Source of the DNA: a virus
Length of the DNA stretch: 22,557 bases
Virus record (IMG/VR): IMGVR_UViG_3300011268_000517
Span: 1 to 22,557 of that record
Reading direction: 5' to 3' (one strand)
Shown here in pieces: positions 2,823 through 18,544 of the stretch. The notes under the pieces are model-generated. The model made no database searches. It saw only the letters and a list, made by a program, of their open reading frames with translations, and was not told where the DNA came from. Position numbers and translations under genes: made by a program. Within the stretch, counting starts at the first letter, position 1. Every line of letters starts with the position of its first letter.

Positions 2823-5800
2823 TTATTCCTTAATTTTTGCTTTTAGTAGTTCCACTTCAGCAGTTAGTTCTTGAACAGCTTTAATTAGAACAGAAACCAT
2901 CTGCCCGTAGTTAACAGTCTTCATGCCGTTTTCTTGTTCTCCAACAAACTCAGGCAAGACCTTTTCAACTTCTTGAGCAATTAAACCAACTTCTTGTTTA
3001 TTGTCTTTAATATATGTAACAGAACGAAGAGCTAATACAGTATCTAGTCCGTATTGTGAATCAACTACATTAGTTTTAATTCTAATATCAGAAGAAACCT
3101 GGAATGCAGAAGCAGTAATAGTACCTGCAGAGAAGTTACCAGAACCATCACGAGCGACAACCATATTCGCTGTATTTGCGGAAGTGGCATTCGCCGCATT
3201 GAATGCAGTATATCCTAATGCGCCATTGACGTCACCAGATGTCAAAGTAACAACGTTAGTTCTTCCGTTGAAAGAAGTAACCATCGCATTACCAAGATAG
3301 TTCCAGAATACATCAGTTCCGTTTGTAGTTAGAACATATCCGTTTTGTGGAGCAGACTGTGGTGGTAGCAAGTTAGTTCTTGCTGCTTGCGCAGTAGTTG
3401 CACCAGTACCACCTGATCCGATACCCAGCGCATTAGTCAAACTCAAAGAAGACAGAGTGGTAGAACCAGCAGATAAGCTGCTAGACAGAGTTACTGCACC
3501 AGATACGTTTAAAGTACTAGAAAGTGTAGTAGCACCAGTAACACCTAATGTGCTAGAGAAAGAACCAGTTGTTGCTGAAAGCGCAGCAAGAGTTGTTGAA
3601 CCAGATACGTTTAGAGTGCTGCTTAGAGTAGTCGCACCAGTAACACCAAGAGTACCACCAACAGTAGTATTAGAAGAAACTGCAAGAGTAGAGCTTAGAG
3701 TAGTCGCACCAGTAACACCAAGAGTACCACCAACAGATGCGTTGCTAGAAACTGTAGCAGTTCCAGTTACGCTTAGTGGTTTGTTCATTTCCCAACGATC
3801 GTTTGCGGATGCGTAAGTCAATGTAGCGTTGGCACCATTAACAGTCAAACCAGCACCGTTTGCTGCAGCGGCAGTAGCAGCACCATCAGCAAGAACGATG
3901 TTTAGGTCATCAACAGAAAGAGTTGTTGAGTTAATTGTAGTTGTTGTTCCGTTAACAGTCAAGTTACCAGACACAATCAAGTTATTATTAACAGTTGTGT
4001 TACCAGTTCCTGCACCGATAGAAACAGTAGTCGCTGCGCCACCCATGTTTAGGGTAGTAGCAGTAGTATTTGCTAGGTTAAATGTAGCAGTAGAAACTGT
4101 TAGGTCGCCACCATCAATATTAACATCACCATCAACGTCTAAGTTATTACGAACGTTTGTAGTTCCAGAAGTTGCGCCAAGAACAATACTAGTAGCTGCA
4201 CCAAATGCGTTAACAGTAGTAGCAGTACTGTTCCACAGGTTTTGAGTAGCGTTAGAACCAACAACAGTTCCTGGACGTAATGTCAAAGTAGCAGTTGTTG
4301 CGTTACCGATATTTAAAGTAGTAGCTGCGCCGAAAGCGTTGACAGTAGTAGCAACAGTATCATATACGTTCTGTGTACTATTAGAACCGACGATAGTTCC
4401 TGGTCGTGCCAATAGAGTTGCGCTAGTAGCGTTACCCAAGTTAATTGTAGTTGCTGCTCCACCAATGTTTAGAGTTGTAGCAATTGTATTGTATAAGTTT
4501 TGAGTAGCATCGCTACCAACCAAAGTGCCAGAGCGTAGAGTAGTAGTACCACCAGAAGCGCCCATAGCGATAGTGCTTGCAGAACCCAACAAGTTTGCAG
4601 TAGTTGCAGTAGTATTGAATACTGTTACGTTAGTCTGGTTAGTTAAGATGTCTCCACCGTTAACAGAAATGTCACCGAAGATAGAGAATGTACCATCACA
4701 GACGATGTTCTTAACAACACTTATACCGCCAGCGAATCGAACAGATCCGTTAGCAGATGTAGTTGCATCGGTTGAGTTAGTGAATGTAACGATACCGTTA
4801 TCGAAAGTTACGTTAGGGTTACCAATCGTTAACAAACCACCAGCAGTAGAACCGATATTTACGTTGGTTGTAGAACCAGCCAAACCACCAGTAGCTAAGT
4901 TTACTGTCTTGGTTGTTGCTGTAGCAGTAGCGCCAACGCCTACGTTGATAGTTTGTGCTGATGTTACGTTGGCGCCAATGTTTAAAGTTCCAGCAGCACC
5001 GAATGCGTTAACAGTAGTAGCTACAGTATTAAACACAGACTGTGTTGTATTTGCACCAACAACAATCGGATTATTCAGTGTTAATACACCAGTAGATGCA
5101 CCCAAAGATACAGCAGTAGCAGATCCACCAACTGTGATTGATGTTTGAGAAGAATCGTTCAGAACAGAGTTGGAAGTCAATACTGGGATAGCGTTGATTT
5201 CGTAAGTCTTGCCTGTCGCCAAACTGAAGTCTTCAGAAGAAGTCCAAGCGCCAGTAGCGTTGATCCAGTTAATTGTTTTATCAGTACTACCTTTTAGGGT
5301 AATACCACCGCCGTCAGCTGTTGTGTTGGTTGGTGATGCAACTGAGCCCAACTCAATATTCTTGTCGTCTACTGTGACGGTAACTGCATTGATTGTTTGA
5401 GTTGTACCGTTGACAGTGAAAGTTCCGCTAACAACCAAGTCGTTACGAACCGTAGTAGTACCAGTAGCAGCACCGATAGAAACAGTAGTAGCTGCGTTAC
5501 CGATATTTAATGTAGTAGCATTGGTATTGAATAGGGTAGCAGTTGTTGCAGTAGTAGTTACGTCACCGCCGTTAACTGCGATATCGCCAGTTAATGTTGC
5601 ATTGTTAGATGCAAAATCTCCACTAGCATCACGAGCCATAATAGTGCTGGCTGTGTTATTTGGTGTAGAGTTTAAAGATAGTAGTGGGTTGCCAGAGATA
5701 CCATCACCGTTAGTGACAGTAATACCCTGTCCAGAAACCGTAATTGCACGGCTAGTGAATGTTCCCTTAGACTGACGAACCACCAAACCAGCAACAGTGT

Positions 5801-6308
5801 TTTGAGCAATACCACGTGTTTCTACACCAAGCCATTTTTCAAATGTGATAGCGTGTAGATCTAGAGTTGTAGGTTGTGAAGTTAACTTCCAAACAGTTTC
5901 GTTATGTGTAGAACCTTCTGCTACATAAACAAACATTCCTTTTTGAATGTTATAAATTTTGTCGAAGTCATAAGAACGAACCCAAGTTCCTGGAAGATCG
6001 ACTACAGTATAGATACCGTTTTTAGACTGATCAGTCTGCCCTGCGACTAAGACACGATCACCAACAGACAGAGAAACGCCATCAACAGTTTGCACACCCG
6101 AAAGTGTAATGTTAGAAGTAGAGATAACTCTGACAGGCAAACTCTTATACTGGCTATTACCCATAACGATTTCACTACCGCCTGGAGTAGTGCCATCGTG
6201 TAGGCGCATTACTTTATGTGATGTATCAAAAGTCGGCTCAGCGTTAGCGCCAGTAAATGTCTTGTGTTGGTCGTATGTACCACGTCTTAATTGAATTTGT
6301 GTTGGCAT
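2823..6308 (-). CDS. Long tail/neck fibre with an Mtd_N-like N-terminus and a C-terminal intramolecular chaperone (peptidase S74)
   Basis: N-terminal QIQLRRGT...HDGTTPGG; Thr/Gly/Ala-rich beta repeats; SSDIRIKTNV autocleavage motif, GLIAQEVE, and VNYGQMV..LIKAVQEL coiled coil. Confidence 0.88.
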   Translation of the reverse strand: MPTQIQLRRGTYDQHKTFTGANAEPTFDTSHKVMRLHDGTTPGGSEIVMGNSQYKSLPVRVISTSNITLSGVQTVDGVSLSVGDRVLVAGQTDQSKNGIYTVVDLPGTWVRSYDFDKIYNIQKGMFVYVAEGSTHNETVWKLTSQPTTLDLHAITFEKWLGVETRGIAQNTVAGLVVRQSKGTFTSRAITVSGQGITVTNGDGISGNPLLSLNSTPNNTASTIMARDASGDFASNNATLTGDIAVNGGDVTTTATTATLFNTNATTLNIGNAATTVSIGAATGTTTVRNDLVVSGTFTVNGTTQTINAVTVTVDDKNIELGSVASPTNTTADGGGITLKGSTDKTINWINATGAWTSSEDFSLATGKTYEINAIPVLTSNSVLNDSSQTSITVGGSATAVSLGASTGVLTLNNPIVVGANTTQSVFNTVATTVNAFGAAGTLNIGANVTSAQTINVGVGATATATTKTVNLATGGLAGSTTNVNIGSTAGGLLTIGNPNVTFDNGIVTFTNSTDATTSANGSVRFAGGISVVKNIVCDGTFSIFGDISVNGGDILTNQTNVTVFNTTATTANLLGSASTIAMGASGGTTTLRSGTLVGSDATQNLYNTIATTLNIGGAATTINLGNATSATLLARPGTIVGSNSTQNVYDTVATTVNAFGAATTLNIGNATTATLTLRPGTVVGSNATQNLWNSTATTVNAFGAATSIVLGATSGTTNVRNNLDVDGDVNIDGGDLTVSTATFNLANTTATTLNMGGAATTVSIGAGTGNTTVNNNLIVSGNLTVNGTTTTINSTTLSVDDLNIVLADGAATAAAANGAGLTVNGANATLTYASANDRWEMNKPLSVTGTATVSSNASVGGTLGVTGATTLSSTLAVSSNTTVGGTLGVTGATTLSSTLNVSGSTTLAALSATTGSFSSTLGVTGATTLSSTLNVSGAVTLSSSLSAGSTTLSSLSLTNALGIGSGGTGATTAQAARTNLLPPQSAPQNGYVLTTNGTDVFWNYLGNAMVTSFNGRTNVVTLTSGDVNGALGYTAFNAANATSANTANMVVARDGSGNFSAGTITASAFQVSSDIRIKTNVVDSQYGLDTVLALRSVTYIKDNKQEVGLIAQEVEKVLPEFVGEQENGMKTVNYGQMVSVLIKAVQELTAEVELLKAKIKE
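3621..3736. repeat. Two identical 44-nt direct repeats (period 72 nt) inside the fibre gene
   Basis: gcttagagtagtcgcaccagtaacaccaagagtaccaccaacag at 3621-3664 and 3693-3736, encoding VGGTLGVTGATTLS. Confidence 0.9.
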
Positions 6309-10041: not shown

Positions 10042-10692
10042 ATGGAAAATAACCAAGCACCACAAAACGAAACAATGTCAGTAGACGAACCTAATGTGGT
10101 CAAATTTTTTGAAAAACAGGCGTTCGCCACCCCAATTATTAGCTATATCAACCAAAAGCACGACGAGTTCAAACTAGAATTCATCAAGTTGGCTGATAAA
10201 ATGCAATCTTCTGGTTTCGATGGCGACATCCTTGAACTTGAAGATGAGCCAGCTGTAAAATTGTTAAAAGAAGCAATTTTTTCAGTTTGCGCAGAGTTGA
10301 AAGAATTTGGCTTTGATAACAGATACCCGTTTATTATGGGATCTAACGTTATCTACCAACAAAGAAACGAACACATTCCAGCGCACTCGTATGAGTTCGT
10401 TCCGCTCGTTCTAACATATATTGTCAATGAGCCTGAGCAAGTGACACCGACTACATATTATATCGACCCTCGTGGTGGTGTCCAAACACTTCGTGAAAAG
10501 GTTAGTCAAAACCTAGTCGGAACTTATTTTGGAATCAACGCCCATGAAGGCGAAATTATTGCAACTCCAGGTTACCTAACTCGATATACTGAGAGTAACC
10601 TAGATAGCCAAACATATCTTTCGATCAATGTTATGGTAGGTTACACCTCAGGGTCTGCAACAGCAACTTCTAAGAATGCCAATGCTGTTTAA
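10042..10692 (+). CDS. 2OG-Fe(II) oxygenase-like protein (TIGR02466-like) with degenerate metal ligands
   Basis: F.TPI near the N-terminus, NV......H.PAH, YIDPRG, EGEII..PGYL. The expected HxH/D reads HSY, and the distal His and Arg appear absent. Confidence 0.6.
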   Translation: MENNQAPQNETMSVDEPNVVKFFEKQAFATPIISYINQKHDEFKLEFIKLADKMQSSGFDGDILELEDEPAVKLLKEAIFSVCAELKEFGFDNRYPFIMGSNVIYQQRNEHIPAHSYEFVPLVLTYIVNEPEQVTPTTYYIDPRGGVQTLREKVSQNLVGTYFGINAHEGEIIATPGYLTRYTESNLDSQTYLSINVMVGYTSGSATATSKNANAV

Positions 10693-12119
10693 GCAGCAAC
10701 GACTGGAATTCCTACAGACTTTCGGACTTTCCAAGAACGCTTAGTTCCATTCGACTTAACAAAGTCGATATCAATTACGGGGACAGATGTGATGCCATCT
10801 CGGCGGATCTTCTGTCCCCTAATTTCTGTTAGGATTAGTCCATCAGTCATAAAGAATAAACTAGCGGCTAACATGGCGTTATTGTACCAGAACAAGTTCT
10901 CACAAGCCTGCTCCCAGTATTGATTCTCTAGGAACAAACACGCACCTTGGCACAGTTGAACAACTGGACAGTTAGGGCATTCTGGACGAGTAGACCAGTG
11001 ATAAGAAGTATGAAGACGGATATTATCAAAGTCTTCAATATTTCCAAGATTGTGCTTCGTTAAAGAAGAAGTGTTCTGACAAGTTGTGACGTTACCCTTC
11101 ATATCGATTGCAATATTATCGTCACGATCCATACCACACTTCTGACCGATAGTGTTTGCTGGGCGTCCTTGTGCAATACCCTCAAAGAAGCTCTTTAATT
11201 TAGTATGAATAGTCATACTAAAGTGATTTTCGCCTTTGATTGTTTCCCAGAATAAAGCGTGAAGAATTTCTTTCTGCTCGTCAGTAGTTCTTAAGGAGTG
11301 TTGCATTCCAGATTCATCGTAAGGGAGCATCAACTCTTCAGTAGTTACGTGAATTTGCCCTTGTTCTATCTCAGGCTTTAGCTTCTCCCAAATAAAGTCA
11401 CGAACTGCAACAAGAGAGACGTTCTCTCGAGTCAACACTGCATTAAACCCTACTCGATTTTGACCCATAACTTTTAAGGCTGTTACAATACCTTCACGCA
11501 TTTGAGGGTCGTCTAGTGGATCAGGACCACGGTTTTGCGCATGAAGAGGTCCATCGTGAGAAATTCCGATACTGAACGCCAAATCATTGAGCCACTTAAC
11601 CTTTTCTTTATCCAGTAAAGAACCATTAGTGACCATATTGAATGACGCATTTGGGAAGAAGTCACGAATTCTCTCTGCCAAAGGCTTCAGAGTTTTCCAA
11701 TACACCATTGGTTCGCCACCCCAAAATTCAATACGAACTTTATCGTATTTACTGATATTGAAGTTATTGCGAATCTTATTAACCAATTCTTCAGCATCTT
11801 CTGGACCACCGACTGGATCATGCGGTTGGTGTGCTTGGTTACAATAAGAGCAAGCAAAGTTGCACTTTAATCCCATCGTAATCTTCAAAATCTTAACAGA
11901 CTTTGTTTTTTTACCATGAGTTTCTGGTGAGGATGGGTTGGTAACTGGCGCTGGACGCCATACCTTGAGGTTTACATTATACTGTAAGTTAGGCGAAATA
12001 ACTGTTAAGTCTGGCTTATCGGAAGTCTCTTCCCAATACATCTCAGAAGTCATTGGGTCGTAGACCATGATCTGCTCAACATCATTCGAACCACGCATTA
12101 CTAATTGAAATGCTGACAT
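10689..12119 (-). CDS. Radical SAM enzyme with a C-terminal SPASM domain (anSME / peptide-maturase type)
   Basis: CNFACSYC (CxxxCxxC), FWGGEP, VTNGSLL, ISHDG; SPASM cysteines KCG...GNVTTC...CPNCPVVQLCQGAC...AC; AGGAG SD. Confidence 0.95.
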   Translation of the reverse strand: MSAFQLVMRGSNDVEQIMVYDPMTSEMYWEETSDKPDLTVISPNLQYNVNLKVWRPAPVTNPSSPETHGKKTKSVKILKITMGLKCNFACSYCNQAHQPHDPVGGPEDAEELVNKIRNNFNISKYDKVRIEFWGGEPMVYWKTLKPLAERIRDFFPNASFNMVTNGSLLDKEKVKWLNDLAFSIGISHDGPLHAQNRGPDPLDDPQMREGIVTALKVMGQNRVGFNAVLTRENVSLVAVRDFIWEKLKPEIEQGQIHVTTEELMLPYDESGMQHSLRTTDEQKEILHALFWETIKGENHFSMTIHTKLKSFFEGIAQGRPANTIGQKCGMDRDDNIAIDMKGNVTTCQNTSSLTKHNLGNIEDFDNIRLHTSYHWSTRPECPNCPVVQLCQGACLFLENQYWEQACENLFWYNNAMLAASLFFMTDGLILTEIRGQKIRRDGITSVPVIDIDFVKSNGTKRSWKVRKSVGIPVVAA

Positions 12120-12139
12120 AAAAAACTCCTATAATTTAA

Positions 12140-12147
12140 CATAAATA
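12140..12147 (+). promoter_or_regulatory. Candidate late promoter CATAAATA for 12177..13565
   Basis: NATAAATA, intergenic, about 30 nt upstream of the ATG at 12177. Confidence 0.65.
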
Positions 12148-12159
12148 AATTTTACCTAC

Positions 12160-12167
12160 TATTTATC
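12160..12167 (-). promoter_or_regulatory. Candidate late promoter GATAAATA for the radical SAM gene
   Basis: tatttatc on +, about 40 nt upstream of the ATG at 12119. Confidence 0.65.
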
Positions 12168-12176
12168 ACCATTTAA

Positions 12177-12962
12177 ATGACAACGTTTAACATTGACTAC
12201 TGCGAACATCCTTTGGATATGGATTTGCTATCGCCATACAAAAATTTATTGTATTGCAGATTAGCGTTACCAGAGGTTCCAAAGATAGACCAGCAAGCAT
12301 TAGAAAAATATGTACACGAAACCAACGAATTATTAGCGACGAATTTAATAGAACGACCGCTAGATCGTGGCGGCTCCGACCGTTTCGCAAAACAAGCAAA
12401 TGTCCATTATCCTTGGAAAACTGCTTGGGTTAGAAGCAGAATGTATGATGGTTGGTTTAATAAGTTTGACGAAAAATTTCCAGAACTAACTAACTATCTA
12501 TTAGAATTTCCAATAGACTCTTTAGAAGAAATTGCTGTTGCGCAGCTACTTGTTCAAAAAGAAAATGTTGAAGCATTCCCACACACTGATCCAGATCCTT
12601 ATTTTGGATTTAGGATATATTTAACTAACGAACCTGATCGAGCAAACTTATACTTCTATCCAAGCTATACTGACTTAGAGGAAAGACCTACAACGTTTGT
12701 TACATCTAATGGCGTAACGACCAAAAATGACTTAACAAAATTTTACAACTTTAATGACAAATTTATTGTTAAAAACAATAAAGGAAAATTTCCATTCATG
12801 CTTAACTCAGTCAGAGGATGTCATGGGGTTGAAAAAAACGCAAAACCAGAATGTGACAGAATAGTTCTTTCAGTATTCTTCAAAAAAATAAATTCTAGTA
12901 AATTGGCTGACTTGTTTAGCCGAAGCGTAGTTAAGTATAAAGATTCTTGTATTTGGAGATAA
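12177..12962 (+). CDS. Putative 2OG-Fe(II) oxygenase (double-stranded beta-helix fold)
   Basis: PHTD (HxD), distal GCHGV (H) and DRIVLSV (R) in the canonical order. Confidence 0.7.
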   Translation: MTTFNIDYCEHPLDMDLLSPYKNLLYCRLALPEVPKIDQQALEKYVHETNELLATNLIERPLDRGGSDRFAKQANVHYPWKTAWVRSRMYDGWFNKFDEKFPELTNYLLEFPIDSLEEIAVAQLLVQKENVEAFPHTDPDPYFGFRIYLTNEPDRANLYFYPSYTDLEERPTTFVTSNGVTTKNDLTKFYNFNDKFIVKNNKGKFPFMLNSVRGCHGVEKNAKPECDRIVLSVFFKKINSSKLADLFSRSVVKYKDSCIWR

Positions 12963-12965
12963 TAT

Positions 12966-13565
12966 ATGATAAAAGTTTTAACGAAAGAGCACGAGTCTCA
13001 AATTATTGATATTATTAATTCTCATGAAAAATCTGTAAAGACTGTTAAATCTGAGTATAGAAATCAAAAAATAATTTCACATACACTTAGATCTCTTGAT
13101 GCTGAAAACAATTATATTATTGGATGGTTTGACGGGGAAACCCTAATTTCATTTTTACATGCAAAGGTTATTTTAGGAATTCCATTCTGGCAATTAGCAT
13201 ACTGGACAACAAGAAATACTAATAGACACTTTTCTAAATCTGGTGTAATACAATTACTGGATAATTGCTGCGAAGTTATGGAAGACAATAAACTTTATAA
13301 TTTCTATCTAGCAAGACCTCTGAAATATGGGATAACAAAATACTTGGTTCAGGCTAAAATGACTAGTAGATATACTATGACTTACGATGAAATTGTTTTA
13401 GAGGGTAATAAATCTAATTATGCTTTGTTTAATTCTATATTCTTCGGAGATATGAAGTCACCATCAGATATGGTGATTATGTCTTTATGTTTAAAGCCAG
13501 AACATAGAAAATTTGACACTATGCCAGAATCGTATTATAAGTACGAAAATCCCTTGCCCAAATAA
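12966..13565 (+). CDS. Hypothetical protein, possible GNAT-like acyltransferase fold
   Basis: Layout IKVLT.E....I..II, YIIGWFDGETLISF, W.T....R....G...LL resembles GNAT topology. There is no clear acetyl-CoA motif, so the fold call is weak. Confidence 0.4.
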   Translation: MIKVLTKEHESQIIDIINSHEKSVKTVKSEYRNQKIISHTLRSLDAENNYIIGWFDGETLISFLHAKVILGIPFWQLAYWTTRNTNRHFSKSGVIQLLDNCCEVMEDNKLYNFYLARPLKYGITKYLVQAKMTSRYTMTYDEIVLEGNKSNYALFNSIFFGDMKSPSDMVIMSLCLKPEHRKFDTMPESYYKYENPLPK

Positions 13566-14293
13566 CCTTCAATATCAATTTCCCACCATCTCTCAGACAA
13601 TATAAGTTTACCTGGAGATGCATGGTGATTATTGTGCCACCCAAACCCCATACCAAATATACCAAGCCAAAAGTTATTGGTAGACTTATCTTCAGTTTGG
13701 TGATTTCTATAACCACTTCCATGGCAGAAGTAGTTAACTAATCCAAGCCTTATAAAATCTAAACAATATGCCAAACCATATAGAAATAGATACACTGGGT
13801 TAACCACTGCTAGGATAATACAAAAACTATAGATGATTGTATAATGGTATTTGTGAAAAAATGCTAAGAATGGATCTTTAGAGATGTTGATCGCTAATCT
13901 CTTAGCAAACCTTTCTCGCATATACTGTTTCTCATTACTCCCTTGAGGAAATGTCCAAGAATACATAGTATACAAAAACCCCTTATTTGGGTCGTGAGGG
14001 TCATTCTCAGTATCAGCACGTATATGATGGGTTTTGTGTTGAATCATCCAATAACTAATTGGACCAATACCACCAAGAGTTGCAAGAATTCCCAGTACCC
14101 ATTTAGTTGGCGTTGAACATCTAAACTGCCCGTGCGCAAAGTATCTATGGGCTGCTACTCCATTACCAATAACGCCAATAAGAAACCATATCACAAACAG
14201 AGCAAGCAAATTGGTGGGCGCAAAATATAAACCCACAAGAGCAAGAACGTGTAATGGTAAGAAAATTAGAAAAAAGTTTTTACCGAATTTCAT
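13535..14293 (-). CDS. Membrane fatty-acid desaturase (delta-9 / DesC-OLE1-like)
   Basis: His boxes HRYFAH, HKTHH...DPH and GWHNNHH; hydrophobic segments; WWEID. Confidence 0.93.
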   Translation of the reverse strand: MKFGKNFFLIFLPLHVLALVGLYFAPTNLLALFVIWFLIGVIGNGVAAHRYFAHGQFRCSTPTKWVLGILATLGGIGPISYWMIQHKTHHIRADTENDPHDPNKGFLYTMYSWTFPQGSNEKQYMRERFAKRLAINISKDPFLAFFHKYHYTIIYSFCIILAVVNPVYLFLYGLAYCLDFIRLGLVNYFCHGSGYRNHQTEDKSTNNFWLGIFGMGFGWHNNHHASPGKLILSERWWEIDIEGYLGKGFSYL

Positions 14294-15042
14294 TTTTTAA
14301 TCACTCTAATGACTAATGACGGAATATCCCACTCCCACCATTTTTCCCAATTATTCCAAGCATATGGTTTAGCATGGTGATTATTGTGCCAACCCTCGCC
14401 CATTGTTATTAAGTTGGCGATCCAACTATTTCTTGACTCATCATTAATTTTATGAGATTTATATCCGTGAATATGCGCTATAACAATAATTGCTGAACTT
14501 GAGTGCAAGCATAAAGAAGCTGGAATAGCATAAGCGAAAATAACTAACCATGGATTTATTAATGCTAAAATTATGCAATATGCAGCAATGATGTAAAAAT
14601 AATACTTGTGCATATTCTTTTGAAACTCATCTCTTCTCATATCACGGATCAGTTTCATTTCAATACCCTCATAATTCCAGAAACCAAACCAAGCACGCCA
14701 CCATCCTAATTGATACGGTGAATGTACATCATTGGGTTTTTCTGTGGCACGATGGTGGTGTCTGTGAACAGCTACCCACGCTAACGGAGAACCGACTGTT
14801 GTTATCACTCCAATAATGGAAAATAATTTTTCAAATAATGGATGTGTTTTAAAAGAACGGTGCGATAATAAACGATGGTATCCAATATTAATCCCAAGAA
14901 TACCAATAACCCAATAAGTTAGTAATGCAATCAACAGATAATCATATGCTGCAGTCGTAAACACAAATATAAGACCACCTAAAAATAATAAGTGGTTAAA
15001 GATCTGTAATCCTCTTACGGCGTGGTTGTGTGAAATTTGCAT
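14290..15042 (-). CDS. Membrane fatty-acid desaturase (delta-9 / DesC-OLE1-like)
   Basis: His boxes GYHRLLSHRSF, HRHHH...D.HSP and GEGWHNNHH; WWEWD; ATGA overlap with the next desaturase. Confidence 0.95.
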   Translation of the reverse strand: MQISHNHAVRGLQIFNHLLFLGGLIFVFTTAAYDYLLIALLTYWVIGILGINIGYHRLLSHRSFKTHPLFEKLFSIIGVITTVGSPLAWVAVHRHHHRATEKPNDVHSPYQLGWWRAWFGFWNYEGIEMKLIRDMRRDEFQKNMHKYYFYIIAAYCIILALINPWLVIFAYAIPASLCLHSSSAIIVIAHIHGYKSHKINDESRNSWIANLITMGEGWHNNHHAKPYAWNNWEKWWEWDIPSLVIRVIKK

Positions 15043-15050
15043 AATCTACC

Positions 15051-15893
15051 TTATTCTACGAATTCAATATATTTAGTTGGGATCACATCACCATCAACTA
15101 ACATGTCTAGTGGATGTTTCTTTCCAAAGAACTCATTTGGAATCCACTCATCATCTACAAAATCAAACCAAGGGCTAAACCCGAGGACAATATTGGTTCT
15201 CTCAATATCGCTGAGGTTATCTGCGAATACACGATGTGGTTTATTTGTATCCCAAGAGTAGCCATACCCGAGATCTAGATGTTCAGTTACCATAAATGGC
15301 GACTGAGGAAATGGTTTCATAAATTTAGTCTCAAGCTGGAACAGATAGTTTGAATCGCTTGTTACTGGGATATTAAATCTCAAATTCTCAAAAACAGGCT
15401 CATCTCGATGCCACATATACGAGAACGCAGTTGTTTCAACTCGCTTTGCGGGTATTGTTGATATACGAGATCTGATCATCGTTCTGTTACAAGAATCTAA
15501 GAACTCGCCCAATTTGCCTATCTTTGATGCGTCAGTTCTCTGGTTGAACCCATAAGAATCATAATAACTGTTAGCACCACCTTGTAGCTTGTCGAACTTT
15601 TGTTTATCGGCGTAGTACTGCTCTTGAACAGTTAGCTTCTCGGTGCCAAGTGTTGACTTGTGCTGGTCAACTGCAATGTTTGGATTATATGTTAGAGATA
15701 GAGACTTGTACGCATCAGACTCACCTTGTGAACTTCTGAACCCATAAGACCCATACTTGGTAAATGCTTCATCAACGTCAGCAGAGAAGTCTACAGAAAT
15801 CTTGAACTTATAAATGTGATTGGTTCTCGCTGGCTTGACTAGATTATTGTTCAAACGATAAGTGTCAGCAAGAGTGTTGAAAATTGTCTTCAT
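15051..15893 (-). CDS. Putative 2OG-Fe(II) oxygenase (Asp/Asn beta-hydroxylase-like fold)
   Basis: RSRIS, WHRD (HxD), RFNIPVTS, WDTNKPHRV (H) and RTNIVLG (R). Confidence 0.72.
   Translation of the reverse strand: MKTIFNTLADTYRLNNNLVKPARTNHIYKFKISVDFSADVDEAFTKYGSYGFRSSQGESDAYKSLSLTYNPNIAVDQHKSTLGTEKLTVQEQYYADKQKFDKLQGGANSYYDSYGFNQRTDASKIGKLGEFLDSCNRTMIRSRISTIPAKRVETTAFSYMWHRDEPVFENLRFNIPVTSDSNYLFQLETKFMKPFPQSPFMVTEHLDLGYGYSWDTNKPHRVFADNLSDIERTNIVLGFSPWFDFVDDEWIPNEFFGKKHPLDMLVDGDVIPTKYIEFVE
15070..15077 (-). promoter_or_regulatory. Candidate late promoter ACTAAATA for the desaturase pair
   Basis: tatttagt on +, about 28 nt upstream of the ATG at 15042, within the 3' end of the oxygenase gene. 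Confidence 0.55.
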
Positions 15894-15945: not shown

Positions 15946-16932
15946 TTACACTAGTGTTATATACAGTTCTGCATAAGAAGTCATGTCACCCAAGTTCAAC
16001 TTCAGTTTAGTGACCTCACCAGCCTCAAGACCAGAAAAATCTAATTGAATGTTAACTTCTGAACCATCTTTCAGTTCTAAACGAGATCTATTACAGAAGC
16101 CATTGGTCAAAACAACATCATATCTATTGATAGACTCTTTGTTGAAATGTTTAGAGCACTTAACTTTTACTGTATGAATTTGATCAGCTGCCAAAGAGGT
16201 TCTAAACGCATTGTTTTGGCGTCCATTAGTTTCATTGCAGTTTGAGTGTCCAAACTGGAAGTTTGGAAACCATTCTTCAATAGTAGCACCAGCAATTTCA
16301 AAGTTAATATGATTAAAGATATACTTAAGAATATATTGACGGTGTAGTTCTACATTCTCATATGGTTTACCTTCTAATGAAATATGAGGAACTTCCATAA
16401 TAGTCAATTCTTGTTCAGTATTAAGCACATTCATATTGTGCGTAGTTCTGAATGTAATAAATGCTTTGTCGAAGTCGAACTTGTCGTGACACTGAATACC
16501 AGCAATCAAGATCAAATCTTTGTTGTAGCGTTGTGCTACTGCTCGCAGAGGTCCAATTGTCTTAGCTTCTGGCATCTGTAAAATGTCAGCAAATCTGAAT
16601 TTTTCAGTAGCTACATCAAATTCAATCAGACCAAAAGTTAGCTCTTTTTCTGGGAAATCAGCGTTAGTGTAACTAACACTATCAACAACGATCAGTTCAA
16701 CAGGAACTGTTTCTGCTCGTAAGTCTTTCTCTTCTGATAGATCATTGTCTCTTTCTTTGCGTTTCGCTACCAAGTCCAGAGAATTAGATTGAAAATTATA
16801 CTTAACATCAAATACATAATTGTCATTGAAGTAAGATTCTCCAGAATCATCAGTTAATTGTCTAGCGCCATCCAATCCGTCTGCAACTGAGCCTACATAG
16901 CGGATATTTTCAAGTTTTGTTACAATTGTCAT
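15946..16932 (-). CDS. Hypothetical protein (328 aa), coupled to the Cys-rich gene; beta-rich C-terminal domain
   Basis: Long ORF with a GGAG SD, 15 nt after the Cys-rich gene. No catalytic motif recognised. Confidence 0.75.
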   Translation of the reverse strand: MTIVTKLENIRYVGSVADGLDGARQLTDDSGESYFNDNYVFDVKYNFQSNSLDLVAKRKERDNDLSEEKDLRAETVPVELIVVDSVSYTNADFPEKELTFGLIEFDVATEKFRFADILQMPEAKTIGPLRAVAQRYNKDLILIAGIQCHDKFDFDKAFITFRTTHNMNVLNTEQELTIMEVPHISLEGKPYENVELHRQYILKYIFNHINFEIAGATIEEWFPNFQFGHSNCNETNGRQNNAFRTSLAADQIHTVKVKCSKHFNKESINRYDVVLTNGFCNRSRLELKDGSEVNIQLDFSGLEAGEVTKLKLNLGDMTSYAELYITLV

Positions 16933-16947
16933 TTTATATTTCTCCGA

Positions 16948-17349
16948 TTATTTGCAAGTGCAGTCACAAGCGCAGTTACATGCGCAGTTACAGTTACATG
17001 CGCAGTTACAGTTACAGTTTGTGCGATACCATCTAAACAAAGCCATCGTTGGCGTTCCGTCTTGTGTATCTGGGCGAATACCATCTGTTGATGTTTGTGC
17101 ACCTTGACCAGTGTTACGGAAAATGTCAATACGGTAGTCTGTTGTTACCACGTTCAAAGCATTATCAGCAGCATCACAGTTACCGCAGTTACAGTTACAT
17201 GCGCTATTACATGCGTTACATGCGCAGTTCCATCCACAGTTACCGTTGCCTTCAGTAAATGTTCTGTTGTAATAACCTCCATAACCCCACAGCACACCGT
17301 TCAGGTCGGTGCCGCCAGAAATTCTAAATCCTGTTGCAGCGATTCCCAT
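16948..17349 (-). CDS. Cys/Asn-rich protein (19 Cys in two CxC ladders); candidate radical SAM substrate or fibre-tip protein
   Basis: GGAG SD; starts 1 nt after the fibre stop. Cys blocks are NCGWNCACNACNSACNCNCGNC (8 Cys) and NCNCNCACNCNCACNCACDCTCK (11 Cys). Confidence 0.85.
   Translation of the reverse strand: MGIAATGFRISGGTDLNGVLWGYGGYYNRTFTEGNGNCGWNCACNACNSACNCNCGNCDAADNALNVVTTDYRIDIFRNTGQGAQTSTDGIRPDTQDGTPTMALFRWYRTNCNCNCACNCNCACNCACDCTCK
16970..17017. repeat. Short tandem repeats (cagtta / gcgcagttacagttacat units) encoding the C-terminal Cys ladder
   Basis: gcgcagttacat, gcgcagttacagttacat and gcgcagttacagttacag in tandem. The 21 nt at 16983-17003 recur identically at 17184-17204. 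Confidence 0.85.
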
Positions 17350-17350
17350 T

Positions 17351-18544
17351 TTATTTCTCCAGTTTTTCTAGACGAGCATTTAGCTCGTTAATAGTATTTT
17401 GTTGTTCTTTGATAGCTTCGATGAGTAAACCGACAATGTTACCGTAAGCAACATTCTTAAACCCATCTTGACCTTCGCTAACTACTTGAGGAAGATGTTC
17501 TTCAACTTCCTGGGCAATAACGCCAATTTCAGCTTTACCATTCTTGATGTAAGAAACACCACGAAGGGAATTAACAACATCTACTGCATTATTTATTGTT
17601 TGAATTTCTTGCTTGAGTCTTGCATCTGAAGATGTATTGACTGTTGCGCCTGTGATATTACCAGAAGCAGTTAAGTTAACGAAAGAGTTGGTAGTGCCAG
17701 CAAATGTGTTGTTGCCAGCTAAAGAAGGAACGTCAGCACCGCAGTCGAGTGTTGGGTTTCCATCCGCACCAGTAGCGTTAGTTATTACGATTCTATTAGC
17801 GGTTCCAACGATACTTCTAACAACAGTTGTTGAATCACCATTCTTGGTGATAAACCCTCTGCTAGCTGCAGATAAGCCAGAAATAGAAGTAAGTTTAGAG
17901 TCAAATGGTTGAACGTCTGATCCAATAACTACACCTAAGGTAGAGCGAGCAGCCGCTGCGTCAGCATCGTCAATTAGAGAACGACCATATGCAGAAAGAG
18001 TAGTAGTTGTGGCAGTACCAGCACCAGTAAAGTATGGTAATGCATTCGCTGCAGATGTAACTGTCGCTAGGGCAGCTAGTTCGGCATCATACGCTTGAAC
18101 GTCTGTGCCGATAACCAAACCTAGAGTATTACGTGCACCTGCTGCAGTAGTCGCACCAGTACCACCAGAACCAATACCCAAGGAAGTGGTTAATGTGATA
18201 GAACCGCTAGTTATAGCAGCTACGCCAGAGAATGTGCCAGAAAACGATGCAGCAGTGATATTATTAGCTGCAAAATTACCAGAAGCATCACGACGAACAA
18301 TAGTGTTAACCGTATTAGCAGTATCCTGCGACCAGCCATCTAGTAAGTCAGCATCCAACCCAGAACCAGCACCGTCGACAGTTTTAATTTTGTTTAAAAC
18401 ATCGGCTGCAGTGTAGGCAGCTGCAGTTAAGCCTGTCTGTATTGCATTACTAATATTAGTAAAATTAGCATCAACTTCGGCGTTCGTTAATGGACTACCT
18501 TTGGTAGCTCTTAACGTAATTGAAGGTGCTGAAATGTTTGACAT
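17351..18544 (-). CDS. Tail fibre with a C-terminal intramolecular chaperone (peptidase S74)
   Basis: N-terminal LRATKGSPLTNAEVDANF; DGAGSGLDADLLDG; GGTGATTAAGAR..LGL; SSDARLKQEI...IGVIAQEVE...VAYGNIVGLLIEAIKE. Confidence 0.9.
   Translation of the reverse strand: MSNISAPSITLRATKGSPLTNAEVDANFTNISNAIQTGLTAAAYTAADVLNKIKTVDGAGSGLDADLLDGWSQDTANTVNTIVRRDASGNFAANNITAASFSGTFSGVAAITSGSITLTTSLGIGSGGTGATTAAGARNTLGLVIGTDVQAYDAELAALATVTSAANALPYFTGAGTATTTTLSAYGRSLIDDADAAAARSTLGVVIGSDVQPFDSKLTSISGLSAASRGFITKNGDSTTVVRSIVGTANRIVITNATGADGNPTLDCGADVPSLAGNNTFAGTTNSFVNLTASGNITGATVNTSSDARLKQEIQTINNAVDVVNSLRGVSYIKNGKAEIGVIAQEVEEHLPQVVSEGQDGFKNVAYGNIVGLLIEAIKEQQNTINELNARLEKLEK

Follow-up and report, generated by a model that had tools for sequence, protein, structure and literature searches.

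The window analyzed here is a 22,557-nt stretch of DNA, positions 1 to 22,557 of virus record IMGVR_UViG_3300011268_000517, a record of 95 kb that is incomplete (58%). An open ORF on its minus strand (16948..17349, stop codon included) encodes a 133-aa protein with two blocks rich in Asn and Cys, which we call ladders. Its neighbours encode a giant protein with DUF4815, a virion protein of 77 aa (phrog_473) and, directly upstream, a 397-aa tail fibre (17351..18544, minus strand) that carries a C-terminal Peptidase_S74 self-cleaving chaperone (profile match at residues 306-355). The ATG of the ladder gene falls 1 nt past the fibre stop codon and is preceded by GGAG 9 nt upstream; after the ladder-gene stop, 15 nt separate it from the next gene (15946..16932), which has the same type of ribosome-binding site. 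At homologous loci, referred to below by L numbers, the gene order is S74 fibre, ladder gene, a gene that we call pX (275-390 aa) and a radical SAM enzyme (~480 aa), and the three core genes (ladder, pX and radical SAM/SPASM) stand behind an S74 fibre in every related locus that is long enough. The window also encodes a second fibre of 1161 aa (2823-6308, minus strand) with Mtd_N and Peptidase_S74 domains. The products of the next three genes contain no Cys, so a ladder protein accompanies only one of the window's S74 fibres. In the sister phages L002-L006 a DctP-family (TRAP solute-binding) gene occupies the position just past the radical SAM gene (about 11158-12330), and the window is without it.

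The Cys content of the ladder protein is confined to two clusters, 8 residues at positions 38-58 and 11 at positions 112-132, and the 53 residues between them (59-111) contain none. Ladder 1 (residues 35-58; 17176..17247, minus strand) is an irregular N/C block, and ladder 2 (residues 111-132; 16954..17019, minus strand) is a strict xC repeat that stops one residue short of the C-terminus. Ladder 2 is not a plain DNA repeat, because TGT and TGC codons are mixed within it. The 18 other window proteins that served as background (a 1236-aa protein was left out) have 32 Cys in 5,933 residues, and at that rate the probability of at least 19 Cys in 133 residues is 2e-21. The protein has 10 NxxC motifs, against 2.7 +/- 1.4 in 10,000 composition-preserving shuffles, one of which reaches 10; its 11 NC dipeptides are reached in none of the 10,000. 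The preliminary description of this DNA, made from the letters alone, had pointed to an 8 + 11 pair of Cys blocks, a Cys-free spacer of about 50 aa, an abundance of NxxC motifs and a distinctive N-terminal motif, and all of these hold; the last is conserved among homologues as ATGF..S.GTDL.

BLASTP identified 27 non-identical homologues of the ladder protein, from metagenomes and viral contigs, at 48-64% identity. Ladder 2 is the most conserved part of the protein, with a mean column entropy of 0.16 bits over residues 111-122, compared with 0.57 bits for ladder 1, where N37, C38, C42, C44, N52, C53, N57 and C58 are invariant. It had been supposed that the spacer is hypervariable and might serve as a receptor-binding loop. 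The homologue alignment speaks against this: the mean entropy of the spacer (0.97 bits) is like that of the N-terminus (1.05 bits), and indel variation within it is confined to the loop at residues 81-89. We therefore rejected a hypervariable receptor loop. The ladder protein has no match in Pfam, PHROGs or NCBIfam, and tblastn against 50,697 phage records returned nothing, for which the low-complexity filter is the likely cause. An AlphaFold2 model built with the 27 homologues is not usable (pLDDT 45.8, pTM 0.26, poorest in the ladders), and the ESM Atlas yielded no result for either the ladder protein or pX. When the ladder-family profile was compared with other ladder proteins, it gave weak scores only, driven by the NC run.

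pX (15946..16932, minus strand; 328 aa) belongs to a family of 45 members that directly follow a ladder-bearing gene across lineages, including ORF047 of Ralstonia phage RSP15. It is the fastest-evolving gene of the module: in the same phages, pX is 10-27% identical to the window copy (in the family alignment), whereas the ladder proteins reach 48-64% and the enzymes 67-71%. Its predicted structure (pLDDT 79.8) is composed of beta-sandwiches, with uncharacterised phage proteins and generic Ig/PapD-like domains as structural neighbours. VIA-align of residues 205-328 likewise returned generic Ig/PapD/MSP-like sandwiches (Z 8-9). Foldseek against the PDB found no match at E <= 0.001, and no Pfam, PHROG or NCBIfam family matched. 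pX, whose C-terminal part is an Ig/PapD-like sandwich, could be a fibre partner, a chaperone, an adhesin or the real specificity determinant.

The radical SAM/SPASM enzyme of the window (10689..12119, minus strand; 476 aa) has the cofactor motifs of its class. The CxxxCxxC Cys residues for the SAM-binding 4Fe-4S cluster (C86, C90 and C93) are invariant in 70 homologues, as are seven SPASM Cys (C328, C347, C381, C384, C390, C394 and C406) in the pattern for two auxiliary clusters. The radical SAM model PF04055 scores 44 bits (cut-off 29.5) and the SPASM model TIGR04085 scores 36.9 bits (cut-off 27). The best named NCBIfam matches are PapB, anSME, QhpD, DynA and other peptide maturases, all far under their own cut-offs: the top match, PapB (NF047865), reaches 79.9 of 340 bits, the anSME model TIGR03942 reaches 73.2 of 349 and the QhpD model 66 of 453. 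Among PDB relatives, the enzyme profile scores 75 bits with 8VPO, 54 with anSME and 48 with CteB; 8VPO is a cyclopropyl synthase (PMC10878394). About 60-75 residues precede the enzyme core, where CteB has its RRE; this segment is shorter than an RRE and has no PqqD-type match. Genome papers annotate the gene merely as "radical SAM" or "anaerobic sulfatase-maturating enzyme." At L104 (7091-9357) two tandem radical SAM genes follow the ladder gene, with 24.7% and 35.9% identity to the window enzyme.

In the window, 4.8 kb of other genes lie between the ladder gene and the enzyme. The island between pX and the enzyme holds a gene that we call p280, two genes of the fatty-acid-desaturase family (13535..15042, minus strand), inserted between pX/p280 and the radical SAM gene, and two plus-strand ORFs. 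Among the homologue loci the full insertion is seen only in L021, and part of it in L038. The p280 gene (15051..15893, minus strand) encodes an accessory protein with an invariant HxD...H...R (H162-x-D164, H220 and R232). It recurs beside the enzyme in RSP15, L059, L162 and L183, as a protein of ~280 aa just upstream of the radical SAM gene in the first two; several other lineages have it somewhere in the stretch from ladder gene to enzyme (homologues at L008 7021-7851, which is RSP15 ORF046; L059 2785-3651; L183 10577-11422). No Pfam, PHROG or NCBIfam family matches p280, and since its profile finds no PDB sequence at E up to 10, it is the HxD...H...R motif itself that suggests what p280 may be, a second tailoring enzyme and candidate Fe(II)/2OG oxygenase. 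An accessory set consisting of p280, a p261-like protein and the two desaturase-family proteins (window 12177-15042, L183 7661-10613) separates the radical SAM gene from ladder/pX in the window and L021, and it does so too in L183, a distant locus. Because these proteins are only 26-42% identical in L183, the shared set suggests a functional link of long standing, as opposed to a recent insertion. The desaturase-family genes appear to be accessory, and their tie to the ladder system is uncertain.

The link between ladder and enzyme extends well beyond the window. The ladder family occurs at 28 viral loci, 22 of which extend far enough downstream (the other six end at a contig edge), and a radical SAM gene lies downstream of the ladder gene in all 22, at a distance of 1.0-1.2 kb, or 5.4 kb where the enzyme island is inserted. 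A reverse search of viral contigs for DNA encoding (Asn-Cys)x4 gave 119 loci. In 64 of these, no more than 10 aa separate the ladder from the C-terminus of its ORF, which is 90 aa or longer; 47 of the 64 have an enzyme homologue of at least 30% identity, four have a weaker one and 13 have none. Eleven of the 13 have less than 2.7 kb of downstream sequence, and their ORFs resemble the ladder-bearing proteins of enzyme-positive loci; the ladder ORFs of the other two (L140, with 10 kb of sequence, and L154) look unrelated or spurious. Forty-one loci have internal or short-ORF matches, many of them from giant-virus bins, and here one enzyme and three weak radical SAM matches were found. A scan of bacterial genomes with the enzyme profile yielded 242 matches, mostly in freshwater Alpha- and Betaproteobacteria (Limnohabitans, Polynucleobacter and Ferrovibrio, for example) and also in Burkholderia paludis MSh1. 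A ladder ORF lies upstream on the same strand in 54 of the 60 bacterial loci with at least 3 kb of upstream sequence; ladder ORFs make up 60 of 1,277 ORFs in the upstream zone and none of 5,265 elsewhere (Fisher 9e-44). Thus, by two reciprocal searches, ladders at fibre C-termini and this enzyme family are found nearly always together in more than 150 phage and prophage loci.

Two cultured phages, Achromobacter phage JWF and RSP15, have enzyme homologues (37-40% identity) inside their fibre modules. The JWF fibre gp028 (L009 5679-7130) carries NCNCDCNCNCSC immediately ahead of a Hint domain starting CFPAGT, and the enzyme gene follows. The RSP15 fibre ORF048, also followed by the enzyme, is a weak case, ending NCQCGN with a two-pair NCQC tail. 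A ladder running directly into a Hint domain is shared by JWF-like siphoviruses and prophages (L009, L054-L057, L062 and L253, the last being Burkholderia paludis MSh1), in which the Cys that closes the ladder also serves as nucleophile of the Hint domain (..NCSC|FPAGT); after self-cleavage, the fibre would therefore end in the ladder. Ahead of other distant enzyme homologues (33-41% identity) lie either ladder-plus-Hint fibres or small ladder-ended proteins, one to three in number. At L060 (7094-8420), L063 (8642-9983) and L157 (2021-2972), two or three consecutive ladder-ended genes stand ahead of the enzyme, one gene with a Hint domain and the others of 80-110 aa; their common N-terminal motif, MAVK..G..VI.D.G.IDW, suggests that they are mini-fibres.

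Where the ladder protein of the window belongs is best seen in its sister phages. In eight T4-like phages, the fibre in the same slot shares residues 1-278 with the window fibre (52-64% identity), and after residue 278 it runs on for roughly 100 residues, closing with an (NC)4 that abuts the stop codon, in place of the S74 domain and separate ladder gene. All flanking marker genes are present in four of the eight fused loci (L102, L169, L170 and L084). Because the orthologous fibre of the sister phages has a ladder fused to its own C-terminus, the ladder protein of the window is most likely a detached fibre-tip module that has split off, one that would attach to the fibre encoded upstream. Moreover, the N-terminal window motif ATGFRISGGTDLNGV matches RATGFIIADGTDIGEL, with which the final 150 residues of longer ladder-ended proteins begin, and for ATGFRISGGTDLNGV hhalign gives 95% probability and E 2e-8 against the L103-type tip, over 16 columns only. 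After this motif, the elements come in the same order in the window protein and the long tips: an NC..GNC block, a spacer, an aromatic/Arg motif and the ladder. The bodies of 8 of 10 long ladder-ended proteins have tail-fibre PHROG matches. The order S74 fibre, small ladder protein and enzyme, with gaps of 1-5 nt, is also found in the unrelated phages L090 and L098. Homology to the fused tip type of the sister T4-like phages is not demonstrated, because hhalign of the window ladder family against these tips aligned only 8 columns. At L053 (4561-5466) and L058 (2442-3347), a radical SAM homologue has an S74 fibre nearby whose sequence closes, past the chaperone domain, with ..KCSNCSCGSK. This short Cys motif would sit on the cleaved-off part, which is at odds with the tip model.

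The preliminary description had placed the gene in the position of the gp38 adhesin. The position stands, in that the gene lies directly downstream of the fibre gene, as the small gp38 gene follows the distal fibre gene in T2/T6. The kinship does not: the ladder protein has no sequence or profile similarity to gp38 (no PHROG or Pfam match, and no tblastn match in the 50,697 phage records), it lacks hypervariable segments and, unlike gp38, it is accompanied by a dedicated radical enzyme. The broader idea that the ladder protein caps a fibre tip fares better, with backing from the fused forms in sister phages and from the motif common to long ladder-ended fibre tips. A second point of comparison is the His-Fe needle of T4 gp37, where a ligand-type residue also recurs at every second position at the fibre tip, but here Cys replaces His. 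The upstream fibre has the same domain as the intramolecular-chaperone fibres of the Peptidase_S74 (endosialidase) type, and to our knowledge such fibres do not receive a separate enzyme-modified cap.

What the enzyme would do to the ladder is suggested by the residues that alternate with Cys. In ladders found next to an enzyme gene, N fills 65% of the non-Cys positions, A 17%, D 12% and Q 1%. The ladder definition required at least two Asn, which inflates the Asn share and leaves those of Ala and Asp unaffected, so only the latter count as independent. In the streptococcal RaS-RiPP pair NxxcB/NxxcA, the enzyme NxxcB links Cys to the beta-carbon of Asn in NxxC motifs; Asn is its native acceptor, and Ala, Gln and Asp are tolerated (PMC9389541). 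The phage system resembles this pair in its repeated NxxC motifs, in a nearby radical SAM enzyme with auxiliary clusters and in the same acceptor residues. It differs in that the motifs overlap as xC repeats, that the genes are phage encoded within a structural module and that the candidate substrate, instead of a short leader-core peptide such as NxxcA, is either a protein of 133 aa or the C-terminal end of a fibre of 200-700 aa. PapB/PapA (freyrasin) and CteB, the latter among the best PDB matches of the enzyme, have in common with it a full SPASM domain and many repeated Cys motifs in one substrate. Unlike these ranthipeptide systems, the phage pair has no CxxxD motif and another biological setting, and its PapB score is 80 bits against a cut-off of 340. 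For substrates of protein size the precedents are QhpD/QhpC and CrpC/CrpA, in which a radical SAM/SPASM enzyme introduces thioethers into a protein; the CrpA report dates from September 2026 (PMC13692751). Together they provide a model for RiPP-type thioethers in a folded protein that stays in a larger assembly, and for a Cys-rich protein substrate encoded beside its enzyme; QhpC is an enzyme subunit and CrpA an archaeal protein, whereas the candidate substrate here is a virus host-recognition fibre.

Enzymatic thioether cross-linking of Cys to Asn, Ala or Asp is thus the most likely mechanism. It is favored because PapB, the top NCBIfam match, and QhpD make links from Cys to a beta- or gamma-carbon, because NxxcB makes the Cys-Asn beta-thioether in NxxC motifs, because the non-Cys ladder residues N/A/D/Q are the set that NxxcB accepts (PMC9389541) and because QhpC and CrpA set a precedent for protein-sized substrates (PMC13692751). 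The preliminary description had raised such a link from the NxxC motifs alone; a radical SAM/SPASM gene does accompany the ladder, and 95% of the non-Cys positions are N/A/D/Q, which lends that chemistry strong genomic backing and leaves the bond itself at the level of a probable assignment.

Other accounts of the locus have to be weighed against these data. The same enzyme and substrate might undergo a different reaction, giving formylglycine, alpha-carbon sactionine, carbon-carbon bonds or inter-chain links among the three fibre chains. The enzyme reaches the cut-off of no named family and its profile scores anSME and 8VPO at least as well as CteB, as such a reading would allow; moreover, fibres with an S74 chaperone are trimers, so the trimer would bring three ladders together. 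We nevertheless regard another reaction as rather unlikely, for PapB heads the NCBIfam matches and the N/A/D/Q acceptor positions fit beta-thioether enzymes (PMC9389541); for formylglycine in particular, the ladder protein lacks C/S-x-P/A-x-R, the motif that anSME targets. The ladders might instead bind metal, in the manner of metallothionein or as a thiolate version of the His-Fe ladder of T4 gp37, with the enzyme acting elsewhere or merely preparing the site. CxC repeats are classic metal ligands, T4 fibre tips carry metal ions on the trimer axis (HxH-Fe in gp37 and Zn in gp12), and the poor AlphaFold result is expected of a fold that depends on metal or on cross-links. Metal binding, however, leaves unexplained why the ladder almost never occurs without the enzyme family, all relatives of which modify peptides or proteins, and no metallothionein or other Pfam or NCBIfam family matches the ladder protein; we consider it improbable.

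Small Cys-rich proteins beside a radical SAM/SPASM enzyme are a hallmark of RiPP clusters, which could make the ladder protein a released product, a bacteriocin or an infection signal, in place of a virion part, and the series of two or three small ladder genes at L060, L063 and L157 would suit that picture. But many phages carry the ladder fused to a genuine tail fibre, the ladder gene sits inside a structural module with translational coupling, and no leader protease or exporter matched among the surrounding genes scanned, so that a released product seems very improbable. Extracellular Cys-rich proteins also commonly form disulfide knots, and the ladders could acquire only disulfides after lysis, without an enzyme, the linkage being a matter of shared inheritance. 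We give this little credence, since shared inheritance alone is hard to reconcile with a linkage that persists across myovirus, siphovirus and prophage lineages whose enzymes are 33-48% identical and whose fibre bodies are unrelated.

We therefore favor, at a probability of about 0.6, a fibre-tip ladder module of the virion that is cross-linked by the phage's own radical SAM/SPASM enzyme. Weighing against it are the 4.8 kb of intervening genes in this window, the enzyme's scores far under every named family's cut-off and the frequent use of CxC repeats in metal binding. Because ladders at fibre ends occur almost only with this enzyme encoded nearby, these phages probably staple their fibre tip chemically. 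In the scheme that we propose, the ladder protein would belong to the virion as a distal module detached from the tail fibre whose gene lies immediately upstream, and it would be the substrate of the enzyme. Late in infection, in the reducing cytoplasm, the enzyme would bind ladder Cys to an auxiliary Fe-S cluster, take a hydrogen off the side chain of an adjacent Asn (or Ala/Asp) and form thioethers from Cys sulfur to carbon, most likely beta-thioethers of the NxxC type. The two ladders would become a rigid, non-reducible polycyclic knot. Once the S74 chaperone of the fibre had cut itself off, the ladder protein would stand at or near the freed fibre end, a place taken in the sister phages by the ladder as the fibre's own C-terminus, and there it may affect stability or receptor binding. 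A wider version is conceivable, on which we would stake somewhat less than even odds: a dedicated virion-tailoring pathway in which the enzyme staples the fibre-tip ladder, possibly across three chains, with a candidate oxygenase and desaturase-family enzymes adding to it in some lineages. The ladder, whether fused, Hint-freed or a separate cap, would then become a non-reducible knot, and this knot would form the receptor-binding end or hold it in place.

That radical SAM/SPASM enzymes cross-link peptides and proteins rich in Cys is known chemistry. In full-text literature searches no paper turned up that connects phage fibre ladders with radical SAM enzymes, and what this window newly provides is the two-ladder stand-alone form together with orthologous fused counterparts. 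The ladder system is widespread, at hundreds of loci in phages and prophages of freshwater Alpha- and Betaproteobacteria. The idea is directly testable, because cultured carriers exist in JWF, which has a full ladder, and RSP15, which has the two-pair NCQC tail only. Phage host range is set by tail-fibre tips, and current understanding credits only folding, chaperones and metal ions with building them. If the proposed reading is true, cross-links installed in the tip by an enzyme would be a new layer of virion maturation and, among the post-translational modifications that enzymes make on virus particles, a new class, and the radical-SAM "RiPP" chemistry would extend from small peptides to the structural proteins of viruses. 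It would give a reason, too, for any failure of such fibres to be produced properly in the absence of the partner enzyme, and so would bear on phage engineering and on work with receptor-binding proteins.
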